IMG/VR virus record: IMGVR_UViG_3300032233_001498
Coordinates: 1 to 64,000 of that record
Source: a virus
Taxonomy: Duplodnaviria > Caudoviricetes
Strand: one strand, 5' to 3'
Length of the DNA: 64,000 nt
Shown here: piece by piece, positions 25,001 to 49,670 of the stretch
How positions within the stretch are numbered: position 1 is the stretch's first letter
Layout: every line of letters starts with the position of its first letter
The notes under the pieces: model-generated
Told to the model about the DNA's origin: nothing
Database searches by the model: none
The model's input: only the letters and a program-made list of their open reading frames with translations
Translations under genes and position numbers: made by a program

Positions 25001-26709
25001 TAATTTTTAGAAAATTAAGATGGAAGAATTTTCTTTCAACCGGTAATTACTATACAGAATTACAATTAGACCAAGAAGCAAATACACTAGTAGTTGGTTC
25101 AAACGGGTCAGGTAAGAGCACTATGCTAGATGCATTGTGCTTTTCTTTGTTTGGCAAACCATTTCGTGATATCAACAAACCACAATTGATTAACTCTATC
25201 AATGGTAAAGATTGTATTGTTGAAGTTGAGTTTGATGTAGGCAACAAATCATATAAGATTGTTCGTGCAATTAAACCTAACAGATTTGAAATCTATGTGA
25301 ATGGTGAACTACTGAACCAAGATGCCGCAGTACGTGACTACCAAGAACACCTTGAGAAGTTTATTCTTAAACTGAATTACAAATCATTTACTCAAATTGT
25401 TATCTTGGGTAGCGCTTCGTTTGTGCCGTTCATGCAATTGAAACCTGGTGACCGCAGAGAAATCATTGAAGACTTACTTGACATTCAAATCTTTAGTGCC
25501 ATGAATACGGTACTCAAAGACAAGATGACAAACAACAAGGACTTAATGATTTCTAAGAAGTATGACATTGACTTGAATGAACAGAAACTTGAAATGCATA
25601 AATTGCATATCAACGAGCAGAAACAAAACAATGATGTGAAAGTAAAACAATATGATGATGAGATACAAAGTAATCAGAGTGTGGTACAAACCATACATGA
25701 AGAAATTGGCCGACTTACACAAACTGTATCGGAACTCTCCGAACAAGTCATTAGCAAGAGTGAAATTGAGACTAAGGTCAAGACGTTTAATAAACTTGAA
25801 TCTCAAATTGAAAGCAACTTATCCAAATTTCGAAAAGATATACGTTTCTTTGACACAAATGATAGTTGTCCAACGTGTAGGCAGGCCATTGCCTTGGAGT
25901 TTAAGGAGACGGAGCTTACCGGTCTCACCAACAAGGTCGAGAAATGTGAACATGGTCTCAGCGAGCTTGAACAAAAACTAATTGTTGAACAAGATAAACT
26001 GAATGTTATTGCAGATATTCAGAGACAGATTCAAATAAATCAAGTTGAGATTGCAACAAAGAATACCACTATTACCGAAACGAATAAGTATATTTCTAAG
26101 TTGCAAAAAGAAATCAAGACACTAACTGAGAAGAAAGAAAGTTCAGTTACAGAAGAATCACAGTTAACAATTCTAAATGATACGTTGACAACAATGAAGG
26201 CTGACTTGAAGGCATTGATTGATGAGAAGACTTATTATGAAGTTGCCTCAAACTTGTTAAAAGATACAGGTATCAAAACGAAGATTATTCGTCAGTACTT
26301 GCCTATCATTAATAAGTTGGTGAACAAACACTTGGCAACATTGGACTTCTTTGTTAACTTTAACCTTGATGAAAGTTTCAAAGAAACAATTAAGTCCCGT
26401 CACCGTGATGAATTCAGTTACGCATCATTTAGTGAAGGTGAGAAACAACGTATTGACATGGCACTTATGTTGACATGGCGTGCAGTTGCAAAATTAAAGA
26501 ACTCAGCAAATACAAACTTGTTGATTTTGGATGAAGTGTTTGATAGTAGTCTCGACACCAATGGTACAGAATACTTGATGAACATTTTACAGATGTTAGA
26601 GAATGTGAATCTTTTTGTTATCTCTCATAAGGGTGATATACTACAAGATAAATTTAGAAGTGTGATTCGTTTTGATAAAGTTAAGAATTTTTCGAGGATT
26701 GTAAAATGA
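24997..26709 (+). CDS. gp46: Recombination ATPase gp46 (Rad50/SbcC-like)
   Basis: GSNGSGKST, CPTCRQ zinc hook, FSEGEKQR signature, LDEVFD. Confidence 0.96.
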   Translation: MIIFRKLRWKNFLSTGNYYTELQLDQEANTLVVGSNGSGKSTMLDALCFSLFGKPFRDINKPQLINSINGKDCIVEVEFDVGNKSYKIVRAIKPNRFEIYVNGELLNQDAAVRDYQEHLEKFILKLNYKSFTQIVILGSASFVPFMQLKPGDRREIIEDLLDIQIFSAMNTVLKDKMTNNKDLMISKKYDIDLNEQKLEMHKLHINEQKQNNDVKVKQYDDEIQSNQSVVQTIHEEIGRLTQTVSELSEQVISKSEIETKVKTFNKLESQIESNLSKFRKDIRFFDTNDSCPTCRQAIALEFKETELTGLTNKVEKCEHGLSELEQKLIVEQDKLNVIADIQRQIQINQVEIATKNTTITETNKYISKLQKEIKTLTEKKESSVTEESQLTILNDTLTTMKADLKALIDEKTYYEVASNLLKDTGIKTKIIRQYLPIINKLVNKHLATLDFFVNFNLDESFKETIKSRHRDEFSYASFSEGEKQRIDMALMLTWRAVAKLKNSANTNLLILDEVFDSSLDTNGTEYLMNILQMLENVNLFVISHKGDILQDKFRSVIRFDKVKNFSRIVK

Positions 26710-27278
26710 GTGAAGTGTTAACGTTTAATACCGAAAGTGGTATTGTACAAGAGGAAGAGATTCTACCTCTTCAAGTACTAGATGAGAATTTTCCTGGCCT
26801 ACGTTCTAGTTTGCCAGAAATTGATGTGACTGCATTACCTAATAATGTAACTACTAATTTGGTCAAGCGATTGAAAATGACCATGAAGTTGTATAATGGA
26901 TTAGGTCTTTCGGCAAGTCAATGCGGCATTATGCAAAGAGTTTTTGTTATCGGTACAGACCAGTTTCAAATTGCCTGTATCAATCCTAAAATTGTTTCAA
27001 GTAAGGCAGAAGTTGCAAAAGACAAAGAAGGTTGCCTCTCTTTTCCAGGTTTATCGCTTATAATAGAAAGACCAAAAAGTATTGATGTTGAGTTCTATAC
27101 CGAAAACGGTGAACTCAAACAGATGACACTTGATGGATTGACTGCAAGATGTTTTCAACATGAACTAGACCACCTGAATGGTATTCGGATGACTGAGCAT
27201 GTTAAACCACTTGCATTACAGATGGCTCGAAAAAGACAAAGCAAATTGATTAAACAATACGTGAAAAGATTAAAATAA
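26706..27278 (+). CDS. def: Peptide deformylase
   Basis: GLGLSASQ, EGCLS and QHELDHL motifs. Confidence 0.93.
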   Translation: MSEVLTFNTESGIVQEEEILPLQVLDENFPGLRSSLPEIDVTALPNNVTTNLVKRLKMTMKLYNGLGLSASQCGIMQRVFVIGTDQFQIACINPKIVSSKAEVAKDKEGCLSFPGLSLIIERPKSIDVEFYTENGELKQMTLDGLTARCFQHELDHLNGIRMTEHVKPLALQMARKRQSKLIKQYVKRLK

Positions 27279-28627: not shown

Positions 28628-28657
28628 TTGCTTTTCATATTAGAAAGCCTATATAAT
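28628..28657 (+). promoter_or_regulatory. Sigma70-type promoter for the tRNA-like RNA
   Basis: TTGCTT (28628-33), 18 nt, TATAAT (28652-57), ending 9 nt before the RNA. Confidence 0.65.
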
Positions 28658-28666
28658 TATATCAAT

Positions 28667-28733
28667 GCGGTTGTTGTAGAACAGTTCAGGTGTCCAACTT
28701 GAACGGTATGTGCGAATCATACAAACCGCTCCA
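28667..28733 (+). tRNA. Atypical tRNA-Gly(UCC)-like RNA, 67 nt, reduced D arm
   Basis: Acceptor GCGGTT/AACCGC + T + CCA; anticodon stem GTTCAGG/CTTGAAC with loop TGTCCAA; T arm GTATG-TGCGAAT-CATAC; 3-bp D arm. Confidence 0.75.
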
Positions 28734-28747
28734 AATTCACAAGTTAA

Positions 28748-28781
28748 GAGACTGTTGCGTAAAAACAACAGTCTTTTTTTT
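28748..28781 (+). terminator. Intrinsic terminator after the tRNA-like RNA
   Basis: AGACTGTTG-CGTAAAAA-CAACAGTCT followed by a T run. Confidence 0.7.
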
Positions 28782-28784
28782 CGC

Positions 28785-28813
28785 TTGCCTTACCCATTAC
28801 CTTGTGTTATACT
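28785..28813 (+). promoter_or_regulatory. Sigma70-type promoter
   Basis: TTGCCT, 17 nt, TATACT. Confidence 0.6.
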
Positions 28814-28838: not shown

Positions 28839-29036
28839 ATGATTGATAACGATTATTCCCATACCCTCTTGGAGCAAGAGGAACAACGGTTCCATTTTAG
28901 TACTTTTGATGTACAAGATGCATTCTTGACCTTTTCGGTCAAGAATATACTTGATGAGGTGCGTAAAAATCCTGTTATAAATCAACAGCTTACAGATTAC
29001 CTAAAAACGCTTGACATTGCTGAGGAAGTGTGTTAG
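28839..29036 (+). CDS. Small hypothetical protein
   Basis: SD GAGGA and an upstream promoter; 65 aa. Confidence 0.55.
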   Translation: MIDNDYSHTLLEQEEQRFHFSTFDVQDAFLTFSVKNILDEVRKNPVINQQLTDYLKTLDIAEEVC

Positions 29037-41420: not shown

Positions 41421-41494
41421 AGCGGATTAGTGAAACGGTATCACAAAGGACTCATAATCCTTAATTCCTAGTTCGAATCTGGGGTCCGCAACCA
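41421..41494 (+). tRNA. tRNA-Met(CAT), initiator-like
   Basis: Cloverleaf with loop CTCATAA, T loop TTCGAAT, encoded CCA; 3' end CCGCAACCA and a 1:72 mismatch as in tRNA-fMet. Confidence 0.88.
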
Positions 41495-46265: not shown

Positions 46266-46593
46266 AGAAGGCACACATTATGAGTTTATTGAAACACCGG
46301 AAGTAACTAGTGTAAAACTCATCAAAGGTAAATATAAAGACATTGTTTATAATTACGGCACGGTAAAGGTTGTACCTGATGAATCTAAGCCTACTGTCCA
46401 ATTTGATTACACAGTCACCAACTTTGGTAAACATGAGCCTGACCTATTGACGGCAGACAAAAAATTCACTAAAATGATGGGTGACATATTAATTAATATT
46501 TTTGAAACCGAAATGAACGGTTTTGATTGGACAAAAAAGGAAGAAGATGAATCGTCTGGAATTATCGATACTGAAGAACCTGATTTACAATGA
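46240..46593 (+). CDS. Hypothetical protein in the gp40 (head vertex chaperone) position
   Basis: Between uvsX and gene 41; G.YK..VYNYG.V pattern. Confidence 0.45.
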   Translation: MFNLNKLPKEGTHYEFIETPEVTSVKLIKGKYKDIVYNYGTVKVVPDESKPTVQFDYTVTNFGKHEPDLLTADKKFTKMMGDILINIFETEMNGFDWTKKEEDESSGIIDTEEPDLQ

Positions 46594-47956
46594 TGATTAT
46601 GCTCGAAAGGTTTTGCCTTTTCTTTCAGCCGATTATTTCAATGATGTAGTTGAGAAAAACATCTTCAAAGAGGTGAATGACTTTATCAACAAGTATAAAG
46701 TTCTTCCCACCCATGAAGCATTGGTAATTAATTTTACTGAGAGTAAGAATCATACAGAAGACCAGGTTAAGTCCGCAATCAATACTCTTAAAGAGATTGA
46801 TGATGCTAAGAATCAACCTACTGAAACACAATGGTTGACTGAACAAACTGAAAAGTTCTGCCAAGATAAGGCACTCTATAATGCAATTATGGAATCTGTC
46901 TCCATCTTGGATGAGTCCAATAAAACACTCAAGAGCAAAGGTGAGATTCCAAAACTTCTTGCTGATGCACTTGGTGTGTCTTTTGACCAAAACATCGGTC
47001 ACGATTACATGAACGATTCAGAATCTCGTTTTGAATTTTATCACAAAAAAGAATCTCGTATTCCTTTTGACCTAGAATTCTTTAACAAGATTACAAAAGG
47101 TGGATTACCTAAGAAAACATTGAACATTGCACTTGCTGGCACCGGTGTTGGCAAGTCCTTGTTTATGTGTCATTGTTCTGCCGCTGCGATTAGTCAAGGT
47201 CTGAATGTACTCTATATCTCCCTTGAAATGGCAGAAGAACGTATTGCTGAACGTATCGATGCTAATTTACTGAACGTGACGATGGATGATTTACATTCTA
47301 TCCCACGTGCAGACTATGACCGTAAATTCGGTGCATTGAAGAACAAGGCACAAGGTAAGTTAATCATTAAAGAATATCCAACCGCAAGTGCTGGGTCTAT
47401 GCACTTTCGTTCTCTAATGAATGAATTGCATTTGAAGAAGAACTTTAAACCTGATATCGTATTCGTTGATTACCTAAACATCTGTTGTTCGTCACGTATC
47501 AAACAAGGTGGTTCTGTAAACTCATACACATACATCAAAGCAATTGCAGAAGAACTACGTGGTCTTGCTGTTGAGTTTGATGTACCAATCGTATCTGCAA
47601 CACAAACAACTCGTTCTGGTTTCTCCAACTCTGACGTTGGTTTGGAAGATACTTCTGAATCATTTGGTCTACCTGCAACTGCCGACTTTATGTTTGCATT
47701 GATTAGTACTGAAGAACTAGAACAACTTGGTCAGATTATGGTCAAGCAATTGAAGAATCGTTATAACGACCCCAACTTCAACAAGAAGTTTGTTATTGGT
47801 GTTGACCGTTCTAAGATGAGATTGTATGATGCAGAGAATTCGGCACAAACAGATTTATCCGATAGTGGTCAGGCAATACCTGATAAACCACTAAACACAT
47901 TTGGAAACCGTGAGAATAAATTTCAAAAGAAAAGTTTTGGTGGATTAAAAGTATGA
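46547..47956 (+). CDS. gp41: Replicative helicase gp41
   Basis: AGTGVGKS, SLEMAEE, VDYLN, SATQTTR, ESFGLPATADF, QLKNRY. Confidence 0.96.
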   Translation: MNRLELSILKNLIYNDDYARKVLPFLSADYFNDVVEKNIFKEVNDFINKYKVLPTHEALVINFTESKNHTEDQVKSAINTLKEIDDAKNQPTETQWLTEQTEKFCQDKALYNAIMESVSILDESNKTLKSKGEIPKLLADALGVSFDQNIGHDYMNDSESRFEFYHKKESRIPFDLEFFNKITKGGLPKKTLNIALAGTGVGKSLFMCHCSAAAISQGLNVLYISLEMAEERIAERIDANLLNVTMDDLHSIPRADYDRKFGALKNKAQGKLIIKEYPTASAGSMHFRSLMNELHLKKNFKPDIVFVDYLNICCSSRIKQGGSVNSYTYIKAIAEELRGLAVEFDVPIVSATQTTRSGFSNSDVGLEDTSESFGLPATADFMFALISTEELEQLGQIMVKQLKNRYNDPNFNKKFVIGVDRSKMRLYDAENSAQTDLSDSGQAIPDKPLNTFGNRENKFQKKSFGGLKV

Positions 47957-48558
47957 AACACATAACTCTTTACAAAAAACTCCATGCATTTGCACCAAAA
48001 TTATACGGTGAGAAAACTACGGGTCAATTGATGTATTGGGTTAGAAAGATGTTAACACCGCACAAGGTCAAAGTAAATCGAATCATTGATAAGAAAAACT
48101 TGGCATTGAGTGGTTATACGATAGGTGGTTTCTACGATTCAACAGGTGAGTTTGGTGATAAAGACATTGAAATGTATCTTGTTTTCAATGAAGAAGATAA
48201 GAACAAAACATTTCTGTTTGAAGAGTGGAGTGTTAAGATGTTGATTGATGAATTGTTTATCACACTTGCACATGAGAAACGACACCGTTATCAATTCAAA
48301 CAAAGAGGCAATGCTTTTGGTCCACAATATCGAAGCAAAGTTACCGATGAAGATTTGAAGGCAGAGTTGGAATATTACGGTGACCCCGATGAGTTGGATG
48401 CCTATGCACAAGAAGCAATCATCGAGGAGAGATTAGGTAGAGATACGCTAATGGGTGCTCAGGCAAAGTACAGACAAATGTTTGCCAATTATGACCCAAA
48501 AGTGTATAATAAATTCTTGAAGAAAAAATATAAATTTGACCAAAAAGTTTCATTATGA
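47953..48558 (+). CDS. Hypothetical protein with HExxH zinc-peptidase-like motif
   Basis: TLAHEKRH and Y..DPDELDAYAQE. Confidence 0.55.
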   Translation: MKHITLYKKLHAFAPKLYGEKTTGQLMYWVRKMLTPHKVKVNRIIDKKNLALSGYTIGGFYDSTGEFGDKDIEMYLVFNEEDKNKTFLFEEWSVKMLIDELFITLAHEKRHRYQFKQRGNAFGPQYRSKVTDEDLKAELEYYGDPDELDAYAQEAIIEERLGRDTLMGAQAKYRQMFANYDPKVYNKFLKKKYKFDQKVSL

Positions 48559-49670
48559 ATTTAACTAAAGAGCAGGCAATCCATGGTGCCAATGTATTCT
48601 CAGACTACTTTGATAGGTTTGGTCGTATCGATGAGTACATGCGTGAACAGAAACTAACTGCGATGGCCGAAAGGCCATTCGTTCTTCCTGGCATGGGACC
48701 TGAAGAAGATTTGTTCTCTGATTTTTCTATGTCACCTGCTGACATGGATTTTGAGATTGTGGAGTTGCCGCAAGAACGTTGGGACACTTATCTCAATATG
48801 ATTTCAAGTCACTCAAACATGACCAGTATTCCTGGTCGTTGCTTGCGCCTTGCTGTATTTGAAAAGAAAACACAGAAGTGGTGTGGTTTCATTCGCCTTG
48901 GTTCACCAGTTATCAATTGTAAACCACGTAACGAAATGTTAGGTGAAGTCTTTACTCAACGTGACGGCGGCGCCCAACAGTTCAACAAGTGTGCAATCAT
49001 GGGTTTCGTAATTGTACCTGCACAACCATTCGGTTTCAATTATCTTGGTGGTAAGTTACTTGCTGCTATCTGCACATCACATGAAGTACGTAAGATGATG
49101 AACGCCAAATATAACATGACCACATGTCTGTTTGAGACCACATCACTCTATGGTTCATCTAAGACTGTATCACAATATGATGGTATGAAACCTCTGATTC
49201 GTTTCAAAGGCTTGACTGATAGTGACTTCTTGCCTATGTTGCACGGCAAAACATATACAGACTTAAAAGACTACATTGAGAACATTACAGGCGAACCACT
49301 TGCACCACTAGATGCTTCTAGTCGTAAGTTGAAAATATCAAATGCAATGGTTGGCATGATTAAAGTTGCACTCAAAGGCAAACCAGAAGGTGAGAAGTTT
49401 GCAAAAACTATTGAGAATGCAAAGAATCTAAACGAACAAAAACGTTATTTTGTTTCTGATTATGGTTTTAAGAACATGGTTGACGTAGTGAATGGTAAGG
49501 CAGATAAGTTGATTCCAGGTGAAAACTATGAGAAACACAATCTAGCCAATATTGTGGAGTGGTGGAGAAAGAAGGCCATCAACCGATTTGATACTTTGAA
49601 TATAGAAGGTCGCATTCGTACTGAACAAGAGGTCTGGACAGGCGATAAACATATTGACATTATTAGGTGA
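48555..49670 (+). CDS. Second DUF4338/DruA-like protein, paralogue of 27278..28615
   Basis: Shares IVPxQPxGxNYxGGKLLA..S.EV..TTSLYG..SQYD with the first copy. Confidence 0.6.
   Translation: MNLTKEQAIHGANVFSDYFDRFGRIDEYMREQKLTAMAERPFVLPGMGPEEDLFSDFSMSPADMDFEIVELPQERWDTYLNMISSHSNMTSIPGRCLRLAVFEKKTQKWCGFIRLGSPVINCKPRNEMLGEVFTQRDGGAQQFNKCAIMGFVIVPAQPFGFNYLGGKLLAAICTSHEVRKMMNAKYNMTTCLFETTSLYGSSKTVSQYDGMKPLIRFKGLTDSDFLPMLHGKTYTDLKDYIENITGEPLAPLDASSRKLKISNAMVGMIKVALKGKPEGEKFAKTIENAKNLNEQKRYFVSDYGFKNMVDVVNGKADKLIPGENYEKHNLANIVEWWRKKAINRFDTLNIEGRIRTEQEVWTGDKHIDIIR

Follow-up and report, generated by a model that had tools for sequence, protein, structure and literature searches.

Introduction

In staphylococci, a group of non-proteogenic transfer RNAs for glycine (tRNAGly) is known which carry UGC or UGU in the T loop, bind poorly to EF-Tu and the ribosome and feed the Fem transferases (PMC7826273). 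Another enzyme that draws on glycylated tRNA is Mom, for which Gly-tRNAGly is the source of the glycine that it attaches to N6 of adenine in double-stranded DNA, where the adduct rearranges to carbamoylmethyl-adenine; Mom of phage Mu uses the host tRNAGly for this, and the report mentions neither a dedicated tRNA nor DUF4338 (PMC13219725). Here, a 67-nt miniature tRNA-Gly is described that is encoded at positions 28667-28733 (+) of a 64,000-nt stretch of viral DNA (positions 1 to 64,000 of the IMG/VR record IMGVR_UViG_3300032233_001498), hereafter the window. The window was taken from an 88-kb IMG/VR contig, which belongs to a freshwater T4-like phage and is about 51% complete. The RNA gene directly follows a gene of the DruA/DUF4338 family, whose domain has been described as a GNAT (PMC10853773).

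With NP1-NP3 of Staphylococcus aureus and Staphylococcus epidermidis, which feed FmhB, FemA and FemB, the phage RNA has in common that it is an extra tRNA-Gly(UCC) keeping the determinants for charging by glycyl-tRNA synthetase (GlyRS; for the phage RNA the charging is predicted), that its T loop is of the UGC type instead of UUC, without Ψ55, and that the usual D-loop features are gone. Like them it would be poor in translation and would act as glycyl donor for a GNAT-fold aminoacyl-transferase, as is proposed below. The UGC or UGU T loop combined with an unusual D loop that marks non-proteogenic tRNAGly is found in the window copy (UGCGAAU); the full-length staphylococcal cloverleaf is not. 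The staphylococcal tRNAs are cellular, of full size and used for cell-wall synthesis, whereas the phage RNAs measure 63-70 nt, with the D arm reduced to 3 bp, the anticodon arm lengthened or shortened and the loops non-standard, and are linked to DruA-family or Mom genes. Mom of phage Mu (PF25680, PDB 8bv8) resembles the enzyme encoded in the window in being a phage GNAT-fold enzyme, and in a subclade of true Mom genes a mini tRNA-Gly lies at the 3' end of the gene, which is the gene-then-RNA layout of the window. The window enzyme differs from Mom in belonging to PF14236 (DruA) and not to PF25680, in showing no profile-level similarity to Mom and in possessing an extra N-terminal domain.

The metazoan mitochondrial tRNAs that lack a D arm are also similar, in that the D arm is reduced, elbow contacts are missing and the mitochondrial model of ARAGORN accepts the element. 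However, these tRNAs decode with co-adapted factors and ribosomes, whereas the phage RNA belongs to a virus of bacteria and has normal tRNAs next to it, and in many members of the family the loop is incompatible with standard decoding. The tRNA-like domain of transfer-messenger RNA and the 3' tRNA-like structures of plant viruses are charged and do not decode as tRNAs, and small stable RNAs are known from the tRNA cluster of T4. Such RNAs contain an acceptor/T-arm mimic ending in CCA, recognised by synthetases and processing enzymes, which the phage RNA resembles; their identities are Ala, Val, His and Tyr, and they have another architecture and other roles. The mini tRNA-Gly most likely extends the known case of a non-proteogenic tRNA-Gly serving an aminoacyl-transferase, its charging and its use being predicted.

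Results

A miniature tRNA-Gly is encoded by the phage

The element and its parts, with the signals that flank it, are as follows.

28667-28733 (+), miniature tRNA-Gly-like RNA of 67 nt, recognised from sequence, fold, covariance model and the mitochondrial mode of ARAGORN
28667-28672 (+), acceptor 5' strand, GCGGUU
28673-28682 (+), D mini-arm, 3-bp stem GUU/AAC with loop GUAG, no GG; followed by a single A
28684-28704 (+), anticodon-like arm, 7-bp stem GUUCAGG/CUUGAAC (28684-28690 / 28698-28704); followed by a single G
28691-28697 (+), anticodon-like loop UGUCCAA, with G33, anticodon UCC and C35 C36 at 28694-28695
28706-28722 (+), T arm, GUAUG-UGCGAAU-CAUAC; followed by a single A
28724-28729 (+), acceptor 3' strand, AACCGC, giving G1-C72, C2-G71 and G3-C70
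28730 (+), discriminator U73
28731-28733 (+), encoded CCA
28628-28657 (+), sigma-70-like promoter, TTGCTT, 18-nt spacer, TATAAT, read directly from the sequence
28746-28785 (+), intrinsic terminator, 12-bp stem, 8-nt loop and T run, 13 nt after the CCA

The minimum-free-energy fold of the element is a four-arm cloverleaf (z = -3.0), and none of 200 shuffled sequences folded as well. An earlier note, made from the sequence alone, had listed the identity bases G1-C72, C2-G71, G3-C70, U73, C35, C36 and CCA as well as a 3-bp D arm without GG, the T loop TGCGAAT, G33 and a 7-bp anticodon stem, and all of these are indeed present. The G.A mismatch that it placed at 7:66 is better read differently. 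G7 pairs with C16 and opens the D stem, and the acceptor stem is therefore 6 bp long with A66 unpaired; the column pair G7/C16 is G-C in 63 of the 71 distinct homologues described below. In the window copy the acceptor stem is joined by a T arm whose loop has 7 nt and which contains G53-C61 and A58; the discriminator and the CCA follow. The decoding core formed by U8, a 4-bp D stem, G18G19, U33, a purine at 37 and T54-Ψ55-C56 was not found as a set, the D stem having 3 bp and the loop GUAG, position 33 being G and the T loop starting with U54-G55-C56.

The promoter ends 9 nt upstream of the element, and transcription is predicted to start 2-3 nt before G1. It had not been listed by the promoter scan because its -35 hexamer matches at only three of the six positions. 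A TATAAT-like -10 element 5-35 nt upstream is present in most of the syntenic homologues, which also have terminator hairpins after the CCA.

The structure is conserved in a family of phage RNAs

The 445-amino acid (aa) open reading frame (ORF) upstream of the element was used as query and yielded 80 related viral loci. In 62 of these, the same intergenic slot, directly 3' of the long DruA paralogue, holds a very divergent sequence of 63-69 nt that always starts with U-GCGG and finishes with CCGCUCCA. This synteny-derived set, which comprises 32 distinct sequences and is unbiased by any pattern, was the basis of a covariance model. Each locus gave a single match to the model, and neither the window nor the whole contig contained a further one; the window copy scored 73.3 bits (E about 1e-17). 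A second set was obtained by a protein-blind pattern scan of IMG/VR, which gave at least 120 matches and added many new subtypes. The combined alignment contains 71 distinct sequences, the pattern-scan part being taken from among the matches listed, and the family ranges in size from 63 to 70 nt.

In this alignment 92% of the cells pair, compared with about 43% in slid controls. Compensatory changes, the presence of which among homologues had been put forward in the earlier note as a check, occur in 16 of the 21 pairs, and the mini D stem shows them in each of its three pairs. For covariation the score was 0.546 against 0.144 in shuffled alignments, none of 500 shuffles reaching the former value, and all four helices covary. 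The family structure is under selection. The element is a genuine, conserved and unannotated phage gene for a miniature tRNA-Gly.

Standard tRNA searches do not report the element

ARAGORN in bacterial mode made no call at the element, even at -ps80, and in the 281 bases searched the Rfam tRNA family (RF00005) gave no match, either at the gathering score or with the threshold relaxed to E<=10, nor did any other meaningful Rfam family. In the metazoan-mitochondrial mode, ARAGORN called a 'D-loop mtRNA-Gly(tcc)' at exactly 28667-28733. The expectation that standard finders would miss the gene was thus borne out, and for annotation this means that mini tRNA-Gly genes are missed by standard tRNA finders and absent from Rfam.

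A blastn search of the region against 50,697 phage records produced only short matches inside the DUF4338 gene of Pelagibacter phages, and an exact 38-mer search of IMG/VR gave no match. Among prokaryotes (one genome for each of 185,579 species) a scan for the GCGGUG...CACCGC subtype, which is the commonest, returned 55 pattern matches, none of which scored above 27 bits when the family model was applied; all 55 match the fixed ends by chance. The family was found in phage contigs only. The sequencing runs with matching DNA are lake, freshwater or unspecified metagenomes, and no RNA run was among the runs listed as containing the sequence. A full-text literature search returned no description of such phage RNAs.

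Charging determinants are invariant and decoding features vary

In the 32 synteny-derived sequences only G1-G4, C69-C72, U73, CCA, the two loop C's, G53, A58 and C61 are invariant. The identity set of bacterial GlyRS consists of U73, G1-C72, C2-G71, G3-C70, C35 and C36 (PMC9976931 Table 1), and all six elements are present in the window copy, from which its charging is predicted. The invariant bases of the family match this published set, with G4-C69, CCA, G53-C61 and A58 in addition, the T-loop core among them holding the acceptor/T minihelix together. C35 C36 are found in 71 of 71 sequences although the pattern scan did not require CC. The invariance of the ends and of G53, A58 and C61 rests on the first set, because the pattern fixed these bases in the second. 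The claim that charging determinants had been selectively retained, which argues against random decay, thereby gains strong support at the level of the family.

The positions that serve decoding behave differently. Positions 32, 33, 34, 37 and 38 and the length of the loop vary freely: both U and G occur at position 33, the latter in the recurrent loop UGUCCAA, position 34 may be U, A or C, position 37 is C or A (C in 43 of the 71 sequences), and the anticodon-like loops measure 4-7 nt, with whole subgroups at 4-6 nt (e.g. UCCCAA). G18G19 have been lost in the family, and position 55 is G in 48 of the 71, so that no TΨC can be formed. The A51-U63 pair, which had been taken to weaken EF-Tu binding, does not discriminate, as T stems just as rich in A and U occur in the canonical tRNA-Gly(UCC) genes of related phages. 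Many phages have the mini gene within a tRNA cluster, only a few nucleotides away from a canonical tRNA-Gly(UCC), and keep both. This adjacency suggests that the mini gene originated by duplication of the canonical gene.

Mini tRNA-Gly genes are linked to GNAT genes

The genes to which the RNAs are linked are given below, together with the linked RNAs of a second phage group.

27278-28615 (+), DruA/DUF4338-family protein of 445 aa, with its end 51 nt upstream of the RNA; the enzyme proposed to use the glycyl-RNA
48555-49670 (+), shorter DruA-family paralogue of 371 aa, matching PF14236
L272:2227-2295 (+), Mom-linked mini tRNA-Gly; also at L274:2185-2253, L276:2176-2244, L277:906-974 and about L275:1345-1415

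Against PF14236 (cut-off 27) the 445-aa protein scored 66.5 bits and the 371-aa paralogue 36.1 bits. The AlphaFold2 model of the former consists of an N-terminal domain and a GNAT fold at about residues 107-389 (predicted local distance difference test, pLDDT, 93). Folded alone, the N-terminal domain reached a pLDDT of 60; the layout of helices and hairpin in the model might be that of a winged helix. The distant DruA homologues examined stand on contigs too short to show their neighbours.

As in the 62 syntenic loci, a mini RNA lies directly 3' of the long DruA paralogue in about 22 of the loci from the protein-blind pattern scan. Where the mini RNA is part of a tRNA cluster, a DruA-family gene was found elsewhere on 11 of 11 contigs of at least 15 kb, compared with 0 of 8 contigs carrying canonical or chance matches; these three counts are from among the matches listed. 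In the unit L109:5136-7450 the short DruA paralogue is followed by a 330-aa ORF without Pfam family and then by a 72-nt tRNA-Gly variant, which has the loop UGUCCAA with G33, no G18G19 and a canonical T loop and is called by ARAGORN. This variant looks like an intermediate between the canonical and the mini forms. At another locus the long DruA paralogue is immediately followed by a tandem of two different mini tRNA-Gly (L159:287-355 and L159:362-430, both on the minus strand), which may reflect one mini tRNA-Gly per DruA paralogue. In the subgroup L073-L081 the RNA starts 2-3 nt after the stop codon, without promoter.

An unrelated group of GC-rich phages has a 69-nt mini tRNA-Gly with a 6-nt loop that begins one to two codons past the conserved C-terminus of Mom. 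The Mom gene of this group is bona fide (PF25680, 222.8 bits), and the contigs, where long enough, are of 38 kb (98% complete) and 47 kb. The open frame contains the RNA in its 3' tail and no stop codon precedes the RNA; excision of the RNA would therefore leave the mom mRNA without a stop codon. Among the five distinct sequences of this clade, compensatory changes are present in 6 of the 20 pairs. The Mom-linked clade is independent of the DruA-linked family. The more distant Mom loci examined are without a mini tRNA-Gly.

Discussion

A proposed glycine carrier outside translation

The chain of events that we infer starts with transcription of the mini tRNA-Gly from its own early-type promoter, which would end at its own terminator. 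Trimming of the transcript would leave G1 and the encoded CCA as its ends, the minihelix of acceptor and T arm, together with G53-C61, A58 and U(-1), offering what RNase P and 3' trimming are expected to need. Host GlyRS would then glycylate the RNA, because it keeps exactly the identity set of that enzyme. For EF-Tu and the ribosome it would be unfit, since the contacts between D loop and T loop at the elbow, U33 and the purine at 37 are wanting, and in relatives even the 7-nt loop; the carried glycine would therefore be reserved for a non-ribosomal reaction. In the last step the adjacent DruA/DUF4338-family GNAT would transfer the glycyl group carried at the 3' end of the RNA to a substrate of its own, for which DNA, by analogy with Mom, is the leading guess. 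That the phage has in this way a glycine carrier which is kept out of translation and feeds its GNAT enzyme seems to us somewhat more probable than the opposite. The narrower proposal, that the RNA would be charged and would not decode, deserves more confidence than the whole chain.

Several observations weigh against this explanation. The PF25680 (Mom) model matches nothing in the genome at E<=10, and hhalign comparison of the DruA-like protein with Mom, and with a 39-sequence alignment of Mom, gave a probability of about 1% or below. Kinship of the 445-aa protein with Mom was rejected at the sequence level on these grounds, and the protein is therefore filed as a DruA-family GNAT and not as a Mom. 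At the level of structure, the lead of Mom over generic acetyl-CoA GNATs is less than 1 Z unit. Furthermore, the sister clade L058-L072 and the Pelagibacter phages HTVC008M and Mosig have a DruA-like gene and no mini tRNA on the available DNA. This implies that the RNA is an accessory and is not required by the enzyme. RNA and enzyme gene are 7-11 kb apart in many phages, and part of the co-occurrence of RNA and DruA may come from the shared ancestry of T4-like phages. The slot of HTVC008M and Mosig (L083:3095-3125, L082:3500-3525) holds a different conserved hairpin, GCTGTGCGA-N-TGACGCA-CAGC.

Alternative roles of the RNA

The RNA might be an odd but working tRNA-Gly(UCC) that supplements the host pool for the GGN codons of the phage, as ordinary phage tRNAs do. 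The anticodon UCC, the 7-nt loop of the window copy, the encoded CCA and the promoter and terminator of its own would suit such a tRNA, as would the call in the mitochondrial mode of ARAGORN; tRNAs lacking a D arm do work in mitochondria, and no canonical tRNA-Gly was seen within the 88 kb of this phage. However, the contig is only about half complete and ends in a tRNA gene, tRNA-Gln(UUG) (G000 88323-88396), so that a tRNA cluster may lie just past the assembled DNA, and related phages keep a canonical tRNA-Gly(UCC) adjoining the mini gene, beside which a degenerate copy would be redundant. With G33 in the window copy, C37, A34 and loops of 4-6 nt in relatives and neither G18G19 nor a TΨC elbow, a decoding role is very unlikely. 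Also the idea that the RNA would be only an element for processing or stability (an RNase P site, or a 3' tRNA-like cap for neighbouring mRNAs), or a mimic acting on T-boxes or the stringent response, with aminoacylation unneeded, has some observations in its favour, namely the promoterless RNAs just past the stop codon in L073-L081 and the position within the open frame in the Mom-linked clade. Yet C35 C36, U73 and the exact G1-G3 pairs are not needed for processing and are invariant, most loci have their own promoter and terminator, and in many phages the RNA is in a tRNA cluster far from any mRNA that it could cap. Nothing was found that points to the T-box or stringent-response mimic suggested in the earlier note, the gene context favouring a glycyl donor for the GNAT, and this whole group of roles is highly improbable.

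A third possibility is that of a decoy or sponge, in which the RNA mimics tRNAGly or Gly-tRNAGly towards a host defence factor (a GNAT toxin of the TacT/AtaT2 type, a host Druantia DruA, or a nuclease of the acceptor stem or anticodon) or titrates GlyRS. It would explain why only GlyRS and acceptor determinants are conserved; GNAT toxins that acetylate Gly-tRNAGly exist according to work cited in PMC13219725, and DruA, the defence protein after which the Pfam family is named, shares its domain with the neighbouring phage gene. A decoy for anticodon nucleases, as the earlier note had also considered, should however copy the whole host loop; in the mini RNAs the loop varies, apart from CC, in sequence and in length. 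No defence system targeting tRNA-Gly is known in the host, and the linkage to the phage's own GNAT genes would be left unexplained, including that to true Mom, for which use of a Gly-tRNA donor has been shown. A decoy is consequently regarded as unlikely. The linkage would fit as well as it fits the donor role if the RNA were the substrate of the GNAT, which would N-acylate the glycine on the mini tRNA with acetyl-CoA or another donor and produce an N-blocked glycyl-RNA, to be used in a later step or in regulation; acetylation of aminoacyl-tRNA by GNATs is known (PMC13219725, legend of Fig. 5). Against this, the parallel clade linked to Mom speaks for a donor role, since Mom takes glycine from tRNA, and no downstream enzyme is evident, which makes it distinctly unlikely.

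Implications of a possible private glycine donor

If the mini tRNA-Gly is the glycyl donor of the adjacent GNAT, the DruA/DUF4338 family, which occurs widely among aquatic T4-like phages and in Druantia defence, would have a testable cofactor in Gly-tRNA. Some DNA hypermodification enzymes of the Mom type would bring their own glycine donor, by which phage translation would be shielded from competition for Gly-tRNA, and non-proteogenic tRNAs, so far reported only in staphylococci, would extend to viruses. The more than 70 variants would form a natural mutagenesis series, showing which features of a tRNA are needed by GlyRS, RNase P and 3' processing and which by the ribosome but not by these. 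Taken further, private mini tRNA-Gly invisible to the ribosome could have evolved repeatedly as cofactors of GNAT aminoacyl-transferases, in at least two families (DruA/DUF4338 and Mom); the DruA family, including DruA of Druantia, would then be a second class of modifiers dependent on aminoacyl-tRNA, acting on nucleic acid or another target, and the mini RNAs would mark the natural minimal substrate of bacterial GlyRS. As a joint claim this is tentative, and we consider it rather less likely to hold than to fail.

Other genes of the window

Directly after the terminator of the RNA gene follows a 65-aa ORF (28839-29036) that matches no Pfam or PHROG family and has its own promoter-like site, TTGCCT-N17-TATACT, at 28785-28813. 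The DruA-like gene is directly preceded by a phage peptide deformylase gene (26706-27278), and the order SbcCD, peptide deformylase, DruA-like, CobT-like 'peptidase', CobS is common to the window and the Pelagibacter phages. A tRNA-Met(CAU) is encoded at 41421-41494. The 371-aa paralogue is preceded by a DnaB-like helicase (46523-47956) and a 201-aa ORF without Pfam family (47953-48558), and is followed by a 366-aa ORF, likewise without Pfam family, and by a DUF6267 gene.
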